From the NCBI GenBank assembly GCA_036149055.1, contig JAYZQJ010000061.1, forward strand, positions 1 to 33,498: a DNA stretch of 33,498 nucleotides, written 5' to 3'. The notes beneath the pieces were generated by a model. It ran no database searches. It was not told the origin of the DNA and was given only the letters and a program-made list of their open reading frames with translations. Positions 2,435 to 14,582 of the stretch are shown in pieces. The position numbers and the translations under genes are program-made. Source of the DNA: Myxococcota bacterium. GTDB taxonomy: Bacteria; Myxococcota_A; Polyangia; Polyangiales; Sandaracinaceae. Position 1 is the first letter of the stretch. Every line of letters begins with the position of its first letter.

Positions 2435-4122
2435 GAGTCCTCGAAGGCCTCGACGATGTACGGCCACTGGCGCTCGAGATCGTTCTTGAAGGCGAGCACC
2501 ATGAGGATCACGAGCAGCGCGAGGCCCACCATCGAGGCGTACTCGCGGACCCGCGTCGACACCGGCCGGCGCGCCGCCGCCTCGATGAAGAAGAAGAGGA
2601 GGTGGCCTCCGTCGAGCATCGGGATGGGCAGGAGGTTGATCAGCCCGAGGTTGATGCTGATCAGGGCCATGAGGCTGAGGTAGTTGGTCGCCCCCTCGCG
2701 CGCCGCCGCCTCCGTCGCCTCGAAGATGCCGAGCACGCCGGTCAGCTCGTTCAGCGGCAGCCGCCCCTGGAAGAGCCGCACCACCGAGTAGACGGTCATC
2801 TCCACCAGGTCGGCGGTGACCCGGAAGGACTGGTCGAGCGCGTAGCCGATCGGGCTGGGGTTCGGGACCGGGGCGTCGAGGGTCGTCGGCCGCCAGTGGC
2901 CCAGGGTCGCGAGGTGACGGCCGGTCTCGGCGTCGAGCACCAGCACCCGCTGATCGCTGTCCTGGTTGGTCACCGAGCGGGCCGCGCGGAGGCGGTAGCG
3001 GCGGGTCACGAGCTGATCGCCGCGCCGCCAGCCGAGCTCCTGGGGCGTGTTGCCGGTCACCTCGACGTCCTCGACGAACGTCGCCCAGAGCCGGATCGGG
3101 ACGCCGTCGACCGAGACCAGCCGGTCACCCGGGCGCACCCCGCCTTCATAGTCGTTGGCCCGCGCGGTGACGTGGGCGACGTAGAGATCGGACTCCTCGA
3201 TCCCGGCGCGCGCGAGCCCGGACCCCGGGCCCGGCTCGGGGGTCAGCGTGGCGACGTGAGGCTCGTAGACCTCCATCTCCACCAGCCCGCCCAGGGCGCC
3301 CTCGACCCGGGTCGGCCGCATGTAGGTCACCGGCACCATCGCGCCGCGGTTCGGCCCGAGGAGCCGCTCGAGATCGATCCAGCGATCCACCGGCTCGCCG
3401 GCCGCGCTGATGATCCGATCGAAGCTCCGCAGCCGGGCGGCCGCGGCCGGGCTCGACGGCGAGGTGACGCCGATGACCGCGAGCGGGTGATGGGGCTTGA
3501 TGCCGACGCGGCCGACCTCGTCGACGAGGTCGAGAGGCCGCCGCGACCGGGCCAGGAACGGGGTGACGGTCACCGTGCGCCGCTCCTCGCCGCGCTCGAC
3601 CACCAGCTCCACCGGCTCCTCCGGGTGCGCCTCGATGATGCGGGCGAGCTCGTAGAAGGTGGTGACGTCCTCGCCGTCCGCCCGGACCACCCGGTCGCCC
3701 GGCTCGAGCACTCCGTCGGCCGGCCGGTCGGGGAAGACGGTGCCGATGACCGCGGGGACCGACTGCGCGTCGCCGAGGTAGACGACGAAGAACAGCCCGA
3801 TGGGCAGCAGCAGGTTCATCGCCGGCCCGGCGACCACGATGATCGTGCGCTTCCAGAGCGACTGCTGGGAGAACGCCCGGCCCTCGTCTTCGGGGCGGAC
3901 CTCGTCGTAGGGGCTCTCGCCGAGCATCCGGACGTAGCCGCCGAGCGGGAAGGCGGCGATCACGTACTCGGTCCCGCCGCGGGTGAACCCGGCGATGCGC
4001 GGGCCGAAGCCGAGCGAGAACTTCAGGACCCGGACGCCGAAGAACTTCGCCCACGCGAAGTGACCGAGCTCGTGCACGAACACGAGCACGCCGACCAGGA
4101 CGATGAAGTAGACGACCTCCAC
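2431..4122 (-). CDS. rseP: RIP metalloprotease RseP (M50, PDZ domains)
   Basis: HELGH zinc motif, FSLGFGP, PLGGYVRM, AGPAMN, PDZ-like repeats, NLLPIPMLDGGH. Confidence 0.93.
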   Translation of the reverse strand: MEVVYFIVLVGVLVFVHELGHFAWAKFFGVRVLKFSLGFGPRIAGFTRGGTEYVIAAFPLGGYVRMLGESPYDEVRPEDEGRAFSQQSLWKRTIIVVAGPAMNLLLPIGLFFVVYLGDAQSVPAVIGTVFPDRPADGVLEPGDRVVRADGEDVTTFYELARIIEAHPEEPVELVVERGEERRTVTVTPFLARSRRPLDLVDEVGRVGIKPHHPLAVIGVTSPSSPAAAARLRSFDRIISAAGEPVDRWIDLERLLGPNRGAMVPVTYMRPTRVEGALGGLVEMEVYEPHVATLTPEPGPGSGLARAGIEESDLYVAHVTARANDYEGGVRPGDRLVSVDGVPIRLWATFVEDVEVTGNTPQELGWRRGDQLVTRRYRLRAARSVTNQDSDQRVLVLDAETGRHLATLGHWRPTTLDAPVPNPSPIGYALDQSFRVTADLVEMTVYSVVRLFQGRLPLNELTGVLGIFEATEAAAREGATNYLSLMALISINLGLINLLPIPMLDGGHLLFFFIEAAARRPVSTRVREYASMVGLALLVILMVLAFKNDLERQWPYIVEAFEDS

Positions 4123-4134
4123 GGGGAGGAGGTC

Positions 4135-5067
4135 CTACCTCTGATCGGGCTCCGGCGCATGCACCGCCACGCGATCGCCCCCCGCGCCCTTGGCCCGGTA
4201 GAGCGCCTCGTCGGCCCGGCGGAGCAGCTCGAGCGCGGTCCCGCCGTCCGCGGGATAGAAGGCCAGGCCGCCCGAGACCCGCACCTTCAGCGGCTCCGCG
4301 TCGTGCATGAAGGGCGTCTCGGCCACCGCGCGGCGGATGGCCTCGGCCAGCTCGTGCGCCGCCTCCGCGGCCAGCCCGGGCACCGCGATCCCGAACTCGT
4401 CGCCGCCCAGCCGGCAGGCCAGCGCCCGGTCGAGCCGGCGGGTCTGCAGCACCGCCCGGACCAGCCCGCCGACCTCGCTGATGACCCGCGAGCCGACCAG
4501 GTGCCCGTGCATGTCGTTGATCGGCTTGAGGCGATCGACGTCCAGGACGAGCATCGAGAGCGTCTCGTCGTTGCGCGCCGCCGCGTCGAGGGCGCCGCTG
4601 AGCTCGATGTCGAACTTCCGCCGGGCGAGCAGGCCGGTCAGGTCGTCCATGTAGAGCCGCTCGAGCACGGCCTCGTCGTAGGCCTGCTCGACCGGGTCGT
4701 GCACCTCGAAGCGCACCACGGTGCCGCCGAGGATGATCTGGTCGTCGGGGGTGAGCATCAGCTCCTTCACCCGCATGCCGTTGACCTCGGTGCGCCGCTC
4801 ACCGGTCAGGTCGACGACCACCCAGCCCCCGTCCTTCGGCTCCACCCGGGCGTGATGCCAGTCGACCTCGGGATCGAAGAGCATCAGGTCCGCCTCGGGG
4901 TCCCGGCCGACGATCGCGGGCGCCTCCAGGAGGATGCGCTGGCCGACCTGCGGCCCCGTCAAGACGACGAGCACGGGTTTGGGCCCTCCGCCCTTCGCGA
5001 AGAGCGACGACGCGTCCACCGCCTCGGGGATGGTGGGACGCCCCCCGCGATCGCCCGGGTCGGTCAC
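4135..5067 (-). CDS. FHA-domain diguanylate cyclase
   Basis: FHA-like region (IVGRDPEADL...HHARV...VNG), then DDLTGL, DVDRLKPINDMHGHLVG, RLGGDEF, ADEALYRAK. Confidence 0.88.
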   Translation of the reverse strand: MTDPGDRGGRPTIPEAVDASSLFAKGGGPKPVLVVLTGPQVGQRILLEAPAIVGRDPEADLMLFDPEVDWHHARVEPKDGGWVVVDLTGERRTEVNGMRVKELMLTPDDQIILGGTVVRFEVHDPVEQAYDEAVLERLYMDDLTGLLARRKFDIELSGALDAAARNDETLSMLVLDVDRLKPINDMHGHLVGSRVISEVGGLVRAVLQTRRLDRALACRLGGDEFGIAVPGLAAEAAHELAEAIRRAVAETPFMHDAEPLKVRVSGGLAFYPADGGTALELLRRADEALYRAKGAGGDRVAVHAPEPDQR

Positions 5068-8407: not shown

Positions 8408-9619
<1,212 letters not shown>

Positions 9620-9620
9620 C

Positions 9621-10508
9621 ATGTCCGGCGTGGTGCTGATCGCCGAGGGCGATCCTTTCAATCTCCGCCTGCTCGAGGAGCTCTGCGAGGAGGCGGGCTT
9701 CGACGTGGTCACCGCCGACAGCGGCGAGACCGCGCTCAACGTGGTGGCGCGACAGCGCCCCGGCCTGATCGTGCTCGACGCGGGCCTGCGGAGCGACGAC
9801 GGCGCGGAGGTGCTCGAGGTCCTGCAGTCCGACGCGACGCTCGCCTCGATCCCCGTGCTGCTGACCACCGGCGCCGACGACGAGGAGAGCCGCAAGCGCG
9901 GCCTCGAGCTCGGCGCGTCCGACTTCGTCGCGCGGCCGTACCGGGTGTACGAGGTCGAGCAGCGCATCAAGAACCTGCTGCGGCTCGCCGAGGCCGAGCG
10001 GGCCGCCGAGCGCGCGCGCAGCTCGCTGACGAGCGATCCCGCGCTCGACAAGGACCCGATCACGCACGCGGGCGGGCCCGGTCAGCTCCGGATCAGCCTG
10101 GAGTACGAGGCCACCCGCGCGGTCCGGTACCGCCACTCGCTGACCTGCCTCGTGCTCCGCGTGCACAACTTCGACGCGATCGTGGCGGCGAGCGGCGAGG
10201 GCACGGGCCACGGCCTGCTCGTCCAGCTGGCCAACGGCCTCCGCATCGCGATCCGCGCCATCGACCACCTCTTCCGGAGCGACACCGACGAGTTCACGCT
10301 GCTGCTGCCGGAGACGGACGCGAGCGAGGCTCGGGTGGTGATCGATCGCCTCCGCGGTCAGGTGGCCGACGGGAGCCTCGTCGGCCCCGCGATCGAGCCG
10401 TCGCCGGAGCTCGGCCTGGGGCAGGCGTCGATCGTGCCGGAGGGACCGATCACCGACGGGGAGCGGCTCTGGCAGGCGGCGCGCGAGGGGATCCTCCCGC
10501 TGGCCTGA
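9621..10508 (+). CDS. Receiver domain plus degenerate GGDEF-domain protein
   Basis: REC ([21 protein letters not shown]); GGDEF-like fold with [15 protein letters not shown] replacing RYGGEEF; starts 1 nt after the EBP stop. Confidence 0.8.
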
Positions 10509-10516
10509 CGTCGCGA

Positions 10517-10558
10517 TCGACAAGGCCGCGGCGGAGGCCTACCCTGAGCTTCAGGAGG
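10517..10558 (+). promoter_or_regulatory. Putative sigma70-type promoter and RBS of the Pup-like/PafA operon
   Basis: TCGACA (10517-10522)-N17-TACCCT (10540-10545); AGGAGG at 10553-10558, 8 nt before GTG. Confidence 0.6.
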
Positions 10559-10566
10559 AAACCCTC

Positions 10567-10746
10567 GTGACCACCTCGAACGCGCTCGTCGACACCCTCT
10601 CTCCGACCCCCGCCGATCCGAGCGAGAGCCCGGAGCGTCCGCTCGAGACCCGACTCGGGGAGGCGCTCGGCCGCATCGCCGAAGACGCCCGCGACGCCGC
10701 CGAGCGCTACGCGCGCGACACCGAGGTCCCCGAGGGCGGCGAGTAA
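10567..10746 (+). CDS. Pup/UBact-like small modifier protein (59 aa, C-terminal GGE), absent from the ORF track
   Basis: MTTSNALVDTLSPTPADPSESPERPLETRLGEALGRIAEDARDAAERYARDTEVPEGGE*; perfect SD; acidic, disorder-prone; 13 nt upstream of a PafA-family gene. Confidence 0.85.
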   Translation: MTTSNALVDTLSPTPADPSESPERPLETRLGEALGRIAEDARDAAERYARDTEVPEGGE

Positions 10747-10759
10747 CGCCGCGCGGGCG

Positions 10760-12505
10760 ATGCGTCGCGTCGCCGGGATCGAGCAAGAGTACGCGATCCG
10801 CTACTCCCCGGTCGGCGGGGAGGGACGGCCGAGCCATCGGCGCGTGTTCCTGGCCTTCCTCCGCACGCTGTCGGAGGAGCTGCAGCCGGGGATCGTCGCC
10901 GAGGAGCGCCTCGACGAGCTGGAGGCGGCCCCGACGCCGGGCATGGGCGCCTTCGTCCTGAACGGCGGGCGCGTCTACTACGAGGCCCTGTCGAAGGCGC
11001 CCGACGGCGGGCTCATCGAGCTCGCGACGCCCGAGTGCCGGGGCGCCAACCAGCTGCTGGTCTACGAGCGCGCGCAAGACGCGCTGCTGCGCCGGGCGCT
11101 GCCCGGGATGCGCCGCCGGCTCGCGCGGGCCGGCTATCCGGGCGAGCTGGATCTCCTGAAGAACTGTCGCGACGCGGCCGGGCACGTGTACGGCACCCAG
11201 GAGAACGTCGAGGTGGAGGTGGCCCGGGGGCCGGCGCTGCTCGCCTACCGCGCGCTCGCCGCGCTGCTGCTCCCCTGGCCGATCGCGCTCACCCTCGCGC
11301 TCTGGGCGATCCTGATCTCGGTCGCGCTGGTCGTCTGCGGGCTGCTCCTCGCGCTCGGCCTCGTCTACGTGACGATCGCGCTGGGGCTCGGGGCGCTGGG
11401 GCTCGCCGGCGTCCGCGCCCGGCGCGCCTGGAGCCTCCTGGATCGCGCGCTGGCCTGGCCCGACCGGCACCTCGGCGTGACGCTGCGCGGGCGCGATCAT
11501 CGCGGCGCGGTCCTGCTCCACCGCTTCGACCACGCGATGTCCTACGCCTTCGCGACGCCGCACCTCGTGCTCGCGCGGCTCTTCCTCTTCGGCCGGGTGC
11601 GGCGCGACCTCGGCGGCCTGCTCGCCTCGCGGGTGGTGCTCTCGGGCGCGGGCGTGCGGCGGGACGACGGCGGCTTCGGTCTGTCGGAGAAGGCCGACGC
11701 GATCGGGGCGCTGCAGCGCTGGCACCTCGGGACGGCGCGCGCGATCCTCGATCCCGTCGAGAGCTACCGCGCGACCCAGGGCCTCGTCGCGCTCCGGGTG
11801 CGGCAGGTGGGGCGGCTCTTCGCGCGGCGGCAGCGGCTGCAGCTCGGGTGCTCGGACGCGAGCCTCGCCGAGGTCGGCGGCCTGCTGAAGATCGGCACCC
11901 TCCTCGAGGCCCTCGCGCTCTCGGACGACGGCGCGCTCGCCGATCTCCCCCGCCCGCGCGATCCGGTCGCCGCGCTCCGCGCGTTCAGCGCCGACCCGAG
12001 CCTCACCGCGCGCGTGCCGATGAGCGACGGCGCGCCGCGCACCGCGCTCGAGATCCAGCGGCTCTACCTCGAGCGCGCCGAGGCCGCCGGGGGCGCGGTC
12101 GATCCCGAGCGCCTCGAGATCCTCCGGCTGTGGCGCGAGTCCCTCGACGCCCTCGAGCGGGACCCGCGCAGCCTGTTCGGGCGCATCGACTGGGTGACCA
12201 AGCGCGAGCTGATCGCGCGGTGCGCGGACGACGACGCCTCGGCCACCAAGGTGGCCCTCCGGTACGCCGAGCTCGAGGGCGGCTACTTTCGCGCGCTCGA
12301 GCGAGACGGGCTCACCGATCGCGTGCTCGACGACGCCGAGATCGAGCGCGCGGTCACCGAGGCCCCGAGCGACACCCGGGCCTTCGCCCGCGCCCGGCTG
12401 GTGCGACGCCTCGCGCGCGAGGGCGGCCCTCGCGAGATCGGCTGGGATCGCGTCCGGGTCGGCCCCCGCTTCCGGGGGAAGGTCATCTTCCTCTTCGGGG
12501 AGTGA
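10760..12505 (+). CDS. PafA/Dop-family (Pup ligase-like) protein with transmembrane insertion
   Basis: RRVAGIEQEY (GhExE), NGGRVY, ELATPEC, LLKNCRDAAGHVYGTQEN, LASRVVLSGAG, LSEKADAI, RLQLGCSD..LKIGT, IDWVTK, DTRA occur in PafA order; ~60-aa hydrophobic stretch inserted. Confidence 0.88.
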   Translation: MRRVAGIEQEYAIRYSPVGGEGRPSHRRVFLAFLRTLSEELQPGIVAEERLDELEAAPTPGMGAFVLNGGRVYYEALSKAPDGGLIELATPECRGANQLLVYERAQDALLRRALPGMRRRLARAGYPGELDLLKNCRDAAGHVYGTQENVEVEVARGPALLAYRALAALLLPWPIALTLALWAILISVALVVCGLLLALGLVYVTIALGLGALGLAGVRARRAWSLLDRALAWPDRHLGVTLRGRDHRGAVLLHRFDHAMSYAFATPHLVLARLFLFGRVRRDLGGLLASRVVLSGAGVRRDDGGFGLSEKADAIGALQRWHLGTARAILDPVESYRATQGLVALRVRQVGRLFARRQRLQLGCSDASLAEVGGLLKIGTLLEALALSDDGALADLPRPRDPVAALRAFSADPSLTARVPMSDGAPRTALEIQRLYLERAEAAGGAVDPERLEILRLWRESLDALERDPRSLFGRIDWVTKRELIARCADDDASATKVALRYAELEGGYFRALERDGLTDRVLDDAEIERAVTEAPSDTRAFARARLVRRLAREGGPREIGWDRVRVGPRFRGKVIFLFGE

Positions 12506-12512
12506 CCGCGGC

Positions 12513-14582
12513 TCAGGGGCAGGAGCGGCCCCAGGACTCGAGGCGCGCGCGGACCTCGCCGATGGCGGGGTGATCGGGGACGAGGCGGCAGAAGCGCTGG
12601 TAGTCCCGGATGGCTTGTTGACGCTCACCCGCCGCGTCGTAGCAGTCGCCCCGGCGACGGAGCGCGATGGCCGGGGCGCCGCCGCGGATGGCCTCGTCGA
12701 GGATCCGCACGCAGCGCTGGGCGTCGCCGCCGCGCATCGCGCTTCGAGCCTGTCGCAGCGCCTCCGTCGGGGTGAGCGGGCCGGGCGCCGCCTCCTCGCG
12801 CGGCGGGCTCGGGGCGCGGCGCTCGCCGAAGCCGGGGAGGAAGTCACCGGGATCCGACGTCTCGGCGGGCGCGCGCTCCTCCGGCGCGTCGGCCTCGGTC
12901 GTCGGCGCGGCGCGGCGCTCCTCGCGCGGCTCGGCGCGAGCCCGACGGGCGCGACGCGGCGTGGGCTCGGGCTCCTCCTCCGCCTCCGGCGCAGGCTCCT
13001 CCGTGGTCGGCTCGGGGAGCTCGGCGCCCTCGACCGGCGCCTCCTCCGGGACGACCTCGACCGGCGCCTCTTCCTCCGGCGTCTCCTCCACCGCCGTCTC
13101 GGCCGGCGGCGGCTCCTCCTGGGAGCGCTCGTAGAAGTAGAGCCCGGCGATCACGAGGCCGGCGCTCGCCGCGCCCGCGAGCAGCGCGCCGAGCACGAGC
13201 AGCCAGCGCCCGCCCTTCTTGGGGATCGCGCTCGCGGGGATCGGCGTGCCGTCCCAGCCGGAGCTCGAGACGGCCGGCGCCGACGGGATCGACGCGCGCT
13301 GCGAGGCGTCCATCATCTCCGTCTGCGCGACCCGTCGCTTGGGCGCGGGCGGCTCGGGGAAGGACTCGACCTCGAACGGGGTCTCGCGGGTGGCCGGCAT
13401 CGCGCGGCCCTCTTCCGGGGAGCGCGTGTCGGGGATCTTCGGCTTGGCGGGCAGCGCGGGGCCCGGCGCCGGCGGCACGGGAGCCCCGGCGACCGCGCCC
13501 ATCGCCGCGGTGGCCCCGTAGGCCAGCTCGCTGCGATCGGGCGCCGGCGTCAGGCCGCTGAACGTCCCGATCGGCAGCTTGCCGCCCTCGTCGGGCGCGG
13601 GCGGAGGGTTCGTCGCCGGCACGCCGGCGTCGGGCGGCGGCACGCTGGCCACCTTCATGCCGCCGAACGCCTGGGTCGCGAGCCCTCGGCGCTGCTCCGA
13701 GCGGACCGCGGACACGCCCCCGACCGCGTCGATGTAGGCCTCGGCGAGCTGCATCGCGGTGTCGTGACGCGCGGTGCGGGTGCGGGACATCGCGCGCATC
13801 ACCACCGCCTCGACCGCCTCGGGCACGTCCGGGCGCGCCGAGCGCAGCGGCACCACCTGGGCGTTGAGGATCGCGATGATGAGATCGGTCGGCGTCGAGG
13901 TCAGGAACGGCGGCCGGCCGGCGAGCGCCTCGTAGAGGATCACCCCCAGCGCGTAGACGTCGACCCGCCCGTCGACGTCGGGCTCGGCGCCGAGCTGCTC
14001 GGGGCTCATGTACCGCGGCGTGCCCAGGATCTCGCCCGTCTGGGTGAGCTTCTCGCTCCCGTAGACCTTGGAGATCCCGAAGTCGAGCAGCTTGACCTGC
14101 ACCCCGTGCGCGGTGGGACAGAGGAAGATGTTGTCGGGCTTGAGATCGCGGTGGACGATGCCCCGCGCGTGCGCCGCGTGGAGCCCGGCGCAGGTGCCGG
14201 CGACGATCGGCGCGAGCTCGGTGGGGTCGAGCGGGCCCCGCCGCATGCGCGATCCGAGCGTCTCCCCCTCGAGCAGCTCCATGATCACGAAGACCGCGCC
14301 GTCGTCGAGCTCGCCCCAGGACTCGACCGAGACGATGGCCGGGTTGTCGAGCTCGCTGAGGACCTGGCCCTCGCGCTTGGTGCGCTCCACCGCCTCCGGC
14401 TTGGCGGCCACGTCGGCGTGCAGGACCTTCACCGCGACGCGACGGCCGCTCTCGGTGTCCTCGGCCGCGAAGACCTCGGCCATGCCGCCCTCGCCGAGCT
14501 TCTCCTCGAGCCGGTAGCGCCCTGCCACGAGCGTGCCCGGCGCGAGGGCCCGCGCTGCGCGTCTCCGCGCCGCCCGTGTCAC
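12513..14582 (-). CDS. Membrane Ser/Thr protein kinase with C-terminal TPR-like domain
   Basis: LGEGGMAEV, VAVK, HRDLKPDN, DFG, GTPRYMSPE, DVYALG; Pro-rich linker; TM WLLVLGALLAGAASAGLVIAGLYFY; TPR-like ALRRRGDCYDAAGERQQAIRDYQRF. Confidence 0.92.
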   Translation of the reverse strand: MTRAARRRAARALAPGTLVAGRYRLEEKLGEGGMAEVFAAEDTESGRRVAVKVLHADVAAKPEAVERTKREGQVLSELDNPAIVSVESWGELDDGAVFVIMELLEGETLGSRMRRGPLDPTELAPIVAGTCAGLHAAHARGIVHRDLKPDNIFLCPTAHGVQVKLLDFGISKVYGSEKLTQTGEILGTPRYMSPEQLGAEPDVDGRVDVYALGVILYEALAGRPPFLTSTPTDLIIAILNAQVVPLRSARPDVPEAVEAVVMRAMSRTRTARHDTAMQLAEAYIDAVGGVSAVRSEQRRGLATQAFGGMKVASVPPPDAGVPATNPPPAPDEGGKLPIGTFSGLTPAPDRSELAYGATAAMGAVAGAPVPPAPGPALPAKPKIPDTRSPEEGRAMPATRETPFEVESFPEPPAPKRRVAQTEMMDASQRASIPSAPAVSSSGWDGTPIPASAIPKKGGRWLLVLGALLAGAASAGLVIAGLYFYERSQEEPPPAETAVEETPEEEAPVEVVPEEAPVEGAELPEPTTEEPAPEAEEEPEPTPRRARRARAEPREERRAAPTTEADAPEERAPAETSDPGDFLPGFGERRAPSPPREEAAPGPLTPTEALRQARSAMRGGDAQRCVRILDEAIRGGAPAIALRRRGDCYDAAGERQQAIRDYQRFCRLVPDHPAIGEVRARLESWGRSCP

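Follow-up and report, generated by a model that had tools for sequence, protein, structure and literature searches.

The window, which is the whole stretch of DNA analyzed in this study, covers 33,498 nucleotides of contig JAYZQJ010000061.1 from a Myxococcota bacterium, and the source genome is 96% complete in 289 contigs. Two closely spaced genes are found on its forward strand. The first is a small open reading frame (ORF) of 59 amino acids at 10567..10746 (+), recognized with a profile of 45 ORFs as a Pup-like modifier gene, whose product ends in RDTEVPEGGE directly before the stop codon. A Shine-Dalgarno-like AGGAGG, read from the sequence at 10553..10558 (+), is located 8 nt before the GTG start of this ORF. 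The small ORF ends 13 nt upstream of the second gene, a single open frame at 10760..12505 (+) that encodes a 581-aa enzyme of the Pup_ligase family and is placed in a clade referred to here as membrane-inserted. The enzyme carries an insert after core strand 4 (residues 155-277; 11222..11590, +), located by alignment against PafA and Dop and by family-wide comparison. Scans of 10300-12800 for sigma-70 promoters and terminators found none. The locus is represented in RNA-library contigs from two studies, although parts of it have no cover. Three of these contigs run across the boundary of the small ORF and the ligase gene (9500-11530, 10562-10926, and 10559-10988). Such contigs record presence in those libraries and are not proof of transcription.

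The 581-aa protein was matched to PF03136 with an E-value of 1.6e-68 and 232.2 bits (cut-off 25), and its residues 3-565 cover positions 1-440 of the 441 profile positions. The AlphaFold2 model of the protein has a mean pLDDT of 92.6 and a pTM of 0.91, and the predicted fold contains the glutamine-synthetase-like beta-sheet cradle and the small C-terminal domain. The best Foldseek matches of this model were Dop 7oxv (E 2.7e-27) and PafA 4bjr, with a target TM-score of 0.70-0.84 for Dop and PafA and with YbdK, GCL, and GS far behind. At the level of the equivalog families, the protein scored 136.6 bits against PafA TIGR03686, for which the cut-off is 551.3, and 138.3 bits against Dop TIGR03688, for which the cut-off is 492.3. 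The family profile of 133 homologues scored 275.8 bits on Dop chains and 236.3 bits on PafA chains. The tree, a quick search on 50 rows with long branches flagged, separated PafA and Dop from the membrane-inserted clade plus a third type with an SH-aLRT value of 100, and each group was recovered with a value of 99. By sequence comparison, the membrane-inserted ligases are a lineage separate from PafA and Dop. Because the scores are far below the PafA and Dop cut-offs and the branching lies outside both groups, the ligase activity of the window protein is a prediction.

The motifs in common with PafA are GxExEY, a TPEC-like motif, KNxxD...YGxxENY, SRxxxxGAG, and RLxxxxxDxN. Among the 133 homologues, E8 is kept in 129, E10 in 131, and E148 in 132, and E87, E92, D138, R291, G296, G298, and R359 are each kept in all 133. 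According to the passage on PF03136 in a review (PMC3511204), the conserved catalytic Asp of this family sits in the loop joining two cradle strands. This residue is not kept as Asp in the window protein, in which Glu75 occupies the PafA-aligned site (YYE, compared with YLD in PafA). The equivalent of Glu75 is Glu in 132/133 homologues, and an acidic residue is retained. In an alternative alignment, Dop D94 corresponds to D82, which is Asp in just 45 of the 133 homologues.

The first-pass annotation had placed an insertion between GTQENVEV (residues 145-152) and LASRVVLSGAG (residues 288-298) and had stated that these motifs are close together in soluble PafA and Dop. Both statements were confirmed. 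The insertion corresponds to residues 155-277, and Dop residues 160 and 161 flank 107 inserted profile positions; positions 74-144 of the profile of 133 homologues correspond to Dop 4b0r residues 94-160, and positions 252-557 correspond to residues 161-462. Similarly, a phmmer comparison with PafA 4b0t gave about 118 extra residues in the window protein. The insert size is 107-118 aa by these measures, and the insert directly follows the QENxE strand. The spacing equivalent to E148-R291 is 106-171 aa (median 127) in 133/133 aligned homologues. A Kyte-Doolittle 19-aa peak of at least 2.0 between the two anchor motifs was found in 233 of the 238 homologues that have both anchors, out of 258 collected, and the hydrophobic block was found in 30/30 homologues of a smaller set.

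The first part of the insert is an uncharged block (residues 165-218; 11252..11413, +), predicted to be a membrane-spanning helix pair from Kyte-Doolittle values, charge count, and the family profile. A nearly uncharged run of about 60 residues had been described at this place; the run is present, and its length is 54 residues. It is without any D, E, K, R, H, Q, or N, residues that make up 30.6% of the protein, and the expected number of runs of this length in 581 aa is about 1.5e-6. The Kyte-Doolittle 19-aa maximum of the block is 2.99. Among the 133 homologues, the block length is mostly 45-60 aa with a median of 52, and the consensus contains 42 charge-free columns that start at R164 (R in 116/133) and end with a Pro (69%) and then an R-rich stretch. 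L, A, V, I, and G are abundant in the block; the sequence is variable and the hydrophobicity is conserved. Judged from its length and borders, the 42-column block would be long enough to cross a bilayer two times, and its two ends would lie on the same side as the catalytic domain.

The amphipathic segment that had been noted after the run was also found. It is an arginine-rich helix at residues 219-243 (11414..11488, +) with a pLDDT of 58-78 and a muH of 0.64, above the 95th percentile of the whole protein (0.50), and it is predicted to lie on the cytoplasmic side. Residues 219-247 contain 7 K/R and 3 D/E. The last insert helix, residues 248-275 (11501..11584, +; DSSP H248-275), is polar, whereas in many relatives it is moderately hydrophobic; it continues into the native helix before SRxxxxGAG and aligns with Dop 161 onwards.

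The insert may contain two or four predicted spans. In the window protein, one 54-aa block, equal to two spans by length, is followed by charged helices, and in the Plesiocystis protein three clear hydrophobic stretches and one short stretch are present. The tail of the insert reaches a maximum 19-aa Kyte-Doolittle value of at least 1.6 in 88/133 homologues; if such a later hydrophobic segment spanned the membrane alone, the span count would be odd, which is impossible. A summed-hydrophobicity test was applied to the 133 members with 19-aa windows and a Hessa-type scale, a sum below zero being taken as inserting. Two non-overlapping inserting windows were obtained for 27 members, one for 97, and none for 8, and no 19-aa window outside the insert summed below zero in any of the 133. 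Two spans were not resolved in most members by this simple test, and this counts against the hairpin reading.

AlphaFold2 drew helices H172-212 and H216-243 for the window protein, with pLDDT values of 89-94 at residues 171-210 and 58-78 at residues 211-250, and helices H150-202 and H204-250 for the Plesiocystis protein, with pLDDT values of 89-98. A turn in the middle of the block was sought in both models and none was found; the helices form one long antiparallel hairpin. The catalytic core is undisturbed in both models, and Dop and PafA are the best structural matches. The earlier proposal of a membrane hairpin with both catalytic halves in the cytoplasm is therefore upheld in part: the family-wide insert, the lipid-facing composition, and the intact core agree with it, but the block has no bend in AlphaFold2. 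Structure prediction, which had been suggested as a check, did return a helical hairpin, but a long one without a turn inside the uncharged block.

The GGE ending is invariant in the 45/45 ORFs that form the modifier profile. This profile matches an ORF immediately upstream of the ligase, on the same strand, in 74 of 80 related loci, and among its 76 match sources, in which the window is counted twice, the frame ends in GGE in 73, DGE in 2, and EGE in 1. In its own genome, the 59-aa ORF is the sole match (E 1.6e-12). The modifiers of the relatives are 48-120 aa as called and share the conserved motif D[AS]-x(9)-Y-x(3)-[TS]-x-VPxGGE. Pfam and NCBIfam searches with the small ORF gave chance matches only and no family. 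The Pup family PF05639 has no match in the genome, and five members of the modifier family did not match it at E-values up to 10. When the modifier profile was compared with solved structure chains, no Pup was obtained and the only match was an unrelated one at E 8.2. A word-index protein search with the small ORF found nothing beyond the copy in the window itself (1 protein, 2 candidates), an outcome of little weight, as ORFs of this size are rarely called. Like Pup (PF05639), the modifier is small, ends in a C-terminal GGE, is encoded directly upstream of the ligase, and is predicted to comprise a helical part and, after it, an extended tail. Unlike Pup, it has a VPxGGE-type motif and not the canonical ...FVxxYVQKGGQ/E; the canonical form is observed in genomes of the same phylum.

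The complex of ligase and modifier was predicted with an ipSAE of 0.84 in all three runs, against 0.00 for the best control. This passes a mark that 116 of 157 solved complexes attained, compared with 2 of 215 mismatched pairs; the pass may stem from memorization of the solved PafA-Pup complex 4BJR by the model. The three runs have at least 73% of their contacts in common, and the partner pLDDT is at least 65. On the ligase side, the predicted contacts involve residues 12-16, 23, 77-85, 133-144, and 484-518, all outside the insert, and on the modifier side they involve residues 26-56. In these models, the small protein is predicted to lie in the groove that Pup occupies in PafA, and its tail is predicted to touch the groove and the active site, as a Pup-like feature.

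The genome contains one PF03136 gene, and searches for ARC/Mpa and the 20S proteasome, like that for Pup, were negative. The best genome score for ARC/Mpa TIGR03689 was 201 bits against a cut-off of 504.75, and the only PF00227 match is HslV. Similarly, the 20S beta subunit was found in 0/3 other genomes of the phylum that have only the membrane-inserted ligase type. The neighbors of the cassette encode a receiver-GGDEF protein, a sigma-54 activator, and, convergently and next after the ligase, a Ser/Thr kinase. When ORFs of at least 100 aa within 6 kb of 71 loci were clustered, no ORF family occurred in more than 12 of the 71 loci, and no neighbor hints at the substrate. Recurring neighbors were considered as a substrate clue and rejected, as the class-III aminotransferase upstream and the chorismate synthase downstream represent lineage synteny in Acidobacteriota. 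A linked membrane-protein gene is not general, with a hydrophobic segment in only 9/55 same-strand downstream ORFs of related loci and no such gene beside the window cassette. The membrane-inserted branch comprises 260 representative clusters at an E-value of 1e-30 or better, and the phylogenetic range of the system includes at least Myxococcota, Acidobacteriota, Planctomycetota, Verrucomicrobiota, and Leptospirales. Cultured carriers among the relatives are Plesiocystis pacifica SIR-1, Chondromyces apiculatus DSM 436, and Paraliomyxa miuraensis.

The idea of a membrane anchor was already published in 2008, and the window protein is a further member of the group for which it was put forward. 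From computational analysis, Iyer, Burroughs, and Aravind (Biol Direct 3:45; PMC2588565) described Pup ligases in Plesiocystis pacifica and Rhodopirellula baltica that carry an insertion directly C-terminal to core strand 4, and they counted four TM segments in it. The same paper proposes anchoring at the cytoplasmic face with no proteasome link, and it reports an adjacent Pup-like gene ending in G[EQ] and a linked membrane-protein gene. Compared with that description, the window cassette is the same in its insert after core strand 4, its adjacent GGE gene, and the absence of nearby proteasome genes. The differences are that the window protein is convincingly hydrophobic only in the first block, unlike the four TM segments described, and that the membrane-protein gene linkage is missing. 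The Plesiocystis SIR-1 ligase shows 42% identity over residues 1-567 and has a GGE ORF 10 nt upstream. A search for experiments with membrane-bound Pup ligases, in which few subscription journals were covered, returned only Iyer et al. 2008 and the papers citing it. The new findings of this study are the GGE ORF across the related loci, the groove prediction, the proteasome-free genome, the separate clade, and Glu75.

The window protein is like PafA (4B0T, 4BJR) in its fold, its adjacent gene for a Glu-ended modifier, and the same predicted groove. Unlike PafA, it has the hydrophobic insert, a Glu for the catalytic Asp, a position outside the PafA clade, and a genome without a Dop, ARC, or 20S partner. 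Dop (4B0R, 7OXV) is the best structural and profile match, but the protein is outside the Dop clade and there is no glutamine-ended modifier to deamidate. Among other known systems, UBact was reportedly described by Lehmann et al. in 2017.

The best explanation extends the 2008 model of Iyer et al. to a new member. It is fairly probable that the window protein is a Pup-ligase-family enzyme whose insert is a predicted membrane hairpin and which ligates the C-terminal Glu of the upstream GGE protein to amines of membrane-proximal targets. The 54-aa block would cross the inner membrane twice, and both catalytic halves would remain in the cytoplasm close to the membrane surface. With ATP, the enzyme would activate the terminal Glu at its gamma-carboxylate, as in PafA, and no deamidase would be needed because the modifier tail already ends in Glu. 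The tagging would act at the membrane independently of a proteasome, where it would either be regulatory or pass the tagged targets to another protease. The membrane substrates, toward which the first-pass annotation had the enzyme directed, are purely conjectural.

This explanation has to be weighed against others for both the insert and the reaction. The insert could be a long hydrophobic helical stalk that does not span the membrane and serves oligomerization or docking into another protein. Other enzymes of the glutamine-synthetase-like superfamily are oligomers, and the continuous high-confidence helices in both AlphaFold2 models would suit a stalk. However, AlphaFold2 ignores the bilayer, and 42-54 charge-free residues bounded by Arg are characteristic of lipid-facing helices and uncommon in soluble coiled coils, which makes a stalk unlikely. 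That the insert is an artefact of a frameshift, a two-gene fusion, or an assembly error is practically inconceivable and is refuted by the single frame and by the same architecture in hundreds of independent assemblies; both flanks also fold as one domain, and the same DNA was recovered in independent runs.

Regarding the reaction, the higher score of the family profile on Dop chains and the Dop structures among the best Foldseek matches would fit a Dop-like hydrolase, a depupylase or deamidase, in place of a ligase. Against this stand the position of the clade outside the PafA/Dop pair, the Dop equivalog score far below its cut-off, and the Glu-ended modifier in all 76 match sources, for which deamidation is unneeded. 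Moreover, with a single PF03136 gene in the genome, nothing would be left to make conjugates if its product were a hydrolase, and this reading is given a rather small chance. A different acceptor is also improbable, namely that the GGE tail is joined to a non-protein membrane amine, such as phosphatidylethanolamine or an envelope precursor, or that the small protein is the scaffold of a peptide natural product. With the insert beside the active-site sheet, the active site would be kept close against the membrane surface, and no protein-substrate or receptor gene is linked and no proteasome or ARC is present, all of which would be compatible with such an acceptor. However, to our knowledge, all characterized PF03136 members act on protein lysines, and no conserved lipid- or envelope-biosynthesis gene lies beside the cassette. 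It is very unlikely that the GGE protein and its ligase are a proteasome-independent tagging system with a membrane amine such as the phosphatidylethanolamine head group as acceptor, which would be a bacterial counterpart of Atg8 lipidation, or that the system marks membrane proteins with a tag read by a non-proteasome protease.

Almost all that is understood about pupylation concerns its role as a degradation tag for the proteasome of Actinobacteria. The cassette with the predicted membrane hairpin represents a predicted second, membrane-bound branch of the Pup-ligase family that would work without a proteasome. The branch is large, extends over multiple phyla, and is nearly always paired with its own GGE-ended protein. 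Since cultured carriers exist, what is tagged at the membrane, and why, is directly testable.

The ligase is encoded by one open frame of 581 aa at 10760-12505 (+), in a window of about 73% G+C. Its product matches PF03136 (Pfam Pup_ligase) from end to end (E 1.6e-68, 232.2 bits). Because residues 3-565 fill profile positions 1-440 of 441, the ligase exceeds the domain by about 120 residues. The first-pass annotation had placed an insertion between the motifs GTQENVEV and LASRVVLSGAG, and the flagged span (11222-11590, +; residues 155-277) sits exactly there. The nearly uncharged run that it described is present at residues 165-218 and is wholly uncharged, without D, E, K, R, H, Q or N; its length is 54 aa, not about 60. 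Only about 1.5e-6 charge-free runs of such length are expected given the protein's own composition. An amphipathic segment follows as described, an arginine-rich, strongly amphipathic helix at 219-243 (muH 0.64 vs a 95th percentile of 0.50). That the two motifs lie close together in soluble PafA and Dop was also confirmed. The profile of 133 homologues aligns with Dop (4b0r) at residues 94-160 and then 161-462, unbroken on the Dop side; therefore, 107 profile positions are inserted between Dop residues 160 and 161. The gap against PafA (4b0t) is about 118 residues. The insert is real and clearly beyond chance.

The insert was then followed across the family. A word-index search found 145 proteins at E <= 0.001 among 7995 scored candidates, mostly of 540-600 aa. 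Where named by the source, they are called 'proteasome accessory factor PafA2 family protein' and come from Myxococcales, Pseudenhygromyxa, Haliangium, Enhygromyxa, and Vicinamibacteria. When 50%-identity representatives were searched exhaustively, 2761 proteins matched at E <= 0.001, 260 of them at <= 1e-30. A hydrophobic block of 45-60 aa directly follows QENYEVE.ARGP..YR in all 30 of 30 aligned sequences, and the equivalents of E148 and R291 are 106-171 aa apart in 133/133. Both anchor motifs are present in 238 of 258 homologues, and the Kyte-Doolittle peak between them is at least 2.0 in 233 of the 238; of the remaining five, four reach 1.47-1.93, and in the fifth the anchor pattern hit the wrong place, with the peak of 2.87 outside the misplaced anchors. 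The family-average profile has 42 successive consensus columns with almost no charge. This stretch starts after R164 (R in 116/133), contains P172 (111/133), and closes with Pro (69%), followed by an R-rich segment, a charged linker, another but weaker hydrophobic zone in which a Pro is conserved (76%), and FRRxRR. Within the block, hydrophobicity is conserved and sequence is not.

AlphaFold2 was used with the 133 homologues to model the window protein. The model is confident (pLDDT 92.6, pTM 0.91), and its core matches Dop and PafA. The predicted insert is wholly helical (H157-170, H172-212, H216-243, H248-275, and H278-290), with pLDDT 58-78 across residues 211-250. The model of the Plesiocystis protein (pLDDT 95.8) shows the insert as two long unbroken helices, H150-202 and H204-250. 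The catalytic core is intact in both models. Neither turns in the middle of the uncharged block; the insert is instead drawn as one antiparallel helical hairpin with a length of about 70-80 Å.

As the two halves of a single catalytic domain have to share a side of the membrane, the number of spans must be even or zero. On a Hessa-type hydrophobicity scale, 19-aa windows summing below 0 number one in 97 of the 133 members, two in 27, three in 1, and none in 8; no such window lies outside the insert in any member. In the window protein, hydrophobicity is confined to the first block; the helices after it are rich in charged residues. Since this block is twice a bilayer span, charge-free, and bounded by Arg at both ends, a two-span hairpin is the best reading of its sequence. 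The Plesiocystis sequence shows three clear hydrophobic stretches plus a fourth, short one, which is consistent with the 2008 count of four segments, and some relatives may have four spans. Less probably, the insert may be a stalk that does not span the membrane, a reading in line with the absence of a mid-block bend in both AlphaFold2 hairpins. The two-span hairpin is preferred here for the window protein.

The window protein scores 136.6 against the NCBIfam PafA equivalog (cut-off 551.3) and 138.3 against the Dop equivalog (cut-off 492.3). A quick maximum-likelihood tree was built from 50 rows: 30 from the window's clade, 8 Dop, 8 PafA, and 4 'third-type' copies from the same phylum. Each of the four groups forms one side of a branch with SH-aLRT 99, and the four third-type copies group as sister to the window's clade. 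The split of PafA and Dop from the window's clade plus the third type has a support of 100 with no root inferred, and long branches, including that of the window protein, were flagged. The tree splits and the equivalog scores indicate that the enzyme belongs to a separate lineage and is an orthologue of neither PafA nor Dop; by sequence, its clade is placed as its own superfamily lineage outside both. Across the 133 homologues, most of the catalytic motifs vary little or not at all. An Asp is proposed as the catalytic base of PafA and Dop (review PMC3511204); in the window's clade, however, this position is Glu75 (YLD vs YYE in the alignment; E in 132/133), and the alternative Asp82 is present in just 45/133. 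The window protein is itself a rather divergent member of the clade. It has V150 where 126/133 homologues have Y and A263 where 101/133 have P, and its terminal branch of 1.05 is the longest but two in the tree.

The distribution was surveyed in 201 genomes of the window's GTDB phylum. Canonical-type high-scoring matches (best E <= 7e-150) occur in 37 of them. In eight pairs examined, Dop was above the cut-off and PafA just below it (pieces trimmed); in two of those genomes (loci L091 and L093), genes for a canonical Pup (...EEFVKNYVQRGGE) and for the 20S beta subunit lie between Dop and PafA. The membrane type alone is present in only 6 genomes of the sample, the window's among them. No PF03136 gene was found in any listed genome of the window's order. 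This patchy distribution of PF03136 types suggests transfer or loss. In four same-phylum genomes, a canonical Dop/Pup/20S/PafA locus is accompanied by a third PF03136 copy elsewhere, at G198:C3:2261711-2263420 (2685-4487 of locus L090), G128:C1:3537515-3539248 (locus L092), G118:C87:45245-46933, and G068:C77:20015-21748 (genome:contig:positions). These ORFs are 604-646 aa long and score 255-298 bits. The L090 copy, the one read, has a hydrophobic insert at the same site; its protein ends in ...SQRQGE. No upstream GGE ORF of their own was found at L090 and L092, the two loci scanned.

A small same-strand ORF of 59 aa (10567-10746, +) precedes the ligase start by 13 nt, with a GTG start, AGGAGG 8 nt before it, and the C-terminus ...RDTEVPEGGE. 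It is the sole copy in the window's genome, and it matched no Pfam or NCBIfam family and, by profile search, no solved Pup chain. When the small ORFs near 68 full-length loci were clustered, 55 of these loci proved to have a homologue, and a profile of 45 copies has GGE invariant in 45/45. With this profile, a same-strand homologue was found just upstream of the ligase in 74 of 80 related loci, at a median gap of about 30 nt. At five of the six loci without a match, the ligase match begins at query residue 250 or later; the full-length locus L027 had no upstream match by the 45-copy profile. Among 76 match sources (the window counted twice), the frame ends in GGE in 73, DGE in 2, and EGE in 1.

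The complex of the small protein with the ligase was predicted with an ipSAE of 0.84 in each of three runs, compared with 0.00 for the best of three controls; the mark used is reached by 116/157 solved complexes and 2/215 mismatched pairs. At least 73% of contacts are common to the three runs, with a partner pLDDT of 65 or more. On the small protein, residues 26-56 are predicted to contact ligase residues 12-16, 23, 77-85, 133-144, and 484-518, which form the sheet cradle and the C-terminal helices; the insert is not contacted. Because PafA-Pup (4BJR) is already solved, the pass may reflect likeness and not binding of this pair. The prediction supports binding of the GGE protein in the Pup groove, and the small protein is likely the partner of the ligase.

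The window's genome (9.9 Mb, 289 contigs, 96% complete) has a single PF03136 gene. No Pfam Pup was found in it, HslV is the only proteasome-family match, and no ARC/Mpa scored above the cut-off (best 201 bits vs 504.75). The best, sub-threshold ARC/Mpa match (201 and 195 bits) is a 763-aa ORF with two AAA domains (G000:C230:10673-12103; loci L083 and L084), which resembles a Cdc48-type ATPase. A RecQ gene in the window encodes a protein sharing 71-77% identity with proteins named Sandaracinaceae, which makes the host a Sandaracinaceae-like myxobacterium. Near-identical DNA (84-100% of sampled words) occurs in seawater, marine, and invertebrate-gut metagenome runs of several studies, and these labels fit a marine organism.

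Upstream of the cassette are the genes of a sigma-54 activator (8408-9619, +) and of a receiver-GGDEF protein (9621-10508, +); after the ligase comes a convergent gene (12513-14582) for a Ser/Thr kinase that has TPR repeats. The first two genes are 1 nt apart and end 59 nt upstream of the small ORF on the same strand, and they may be co-transcribed with the cassette. RNA-library contig X15 (9500-11530) spans the GGDEF gene into the ligase. This upstream arrangement is not conserved at other loci (71 compared), and no neighbor family is common to more than 12 of the 71. In a group of up to 12 loci that includes L005, L006, and L008, its listed members being Acidobacteriota, a class-III aminotransferase lies upstream and chorismate synthase downstream of the cassette, which is synteny within one lineage only. 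RNA-library contigs from two studies cover the window's locus, and three bridge the small-ORF/ligase junction; they are compatible with expression and no proof of it. Contigs X16 (10562-10926) and X17 (10559-10988), from two RNA libraries of one sample, start 5-8 nt before the small-ORF GTG, with a depth of 10.6-13.6 vs 1-5 in flanking contigs, although contigs cannot define transcript starts or levels.

Iyer, Burroughs and Aravind (2008, Biol Direct 3:45) describe a Pup and Pup ligase of Plesiocystis and Rhodopirellula without linkage to proteasome genes; they reported the insertion in these ligases, counted four TM segments, and proposed that the enzyme is anchored to the cytoplasmic face. 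One of the relatives recovered here is the gene of Plesiocystis pacifica SIR-1 (L060), with 42% identity over residues 1-567. The first-pass membrane-anchor reading is sensible, but observation and reading together rediscover a published computational prediction; the window ligase is a further member of the membrane-inserted clade predicted in 2008. The linked membrane-protein gene in the same account is, however, not general among the related loci here. A literature search with most subscription journals outside its reach found no experimental follow-up. What is new is how broad the clade is, the GGE partner present at nearly all loci and its predicted complex with the ligase, the placement outside PafA and Dop, the Asp-to-Glu change at the catalytic position, and the question of two versus four spans.

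In the proposed mechanism, the enzyme would be anchored in the inner membrane and hold its active site at the cytoplasmic face; membrane association is very likely. The GGE protein is predicted to occupy the Pup groove, where its terminal Glu would be activated with ATP as in PafA and passed to amines of membrane-proximal targets. That the targets are proteins at the membrane is an even call. Taken with the stronger cases for membrane association and for the partner, this leaves the model as a whole somewhat favored. As the proteasome and ARC are absent, tagging would serve to regulate the targets or to flag them for some other machinery.
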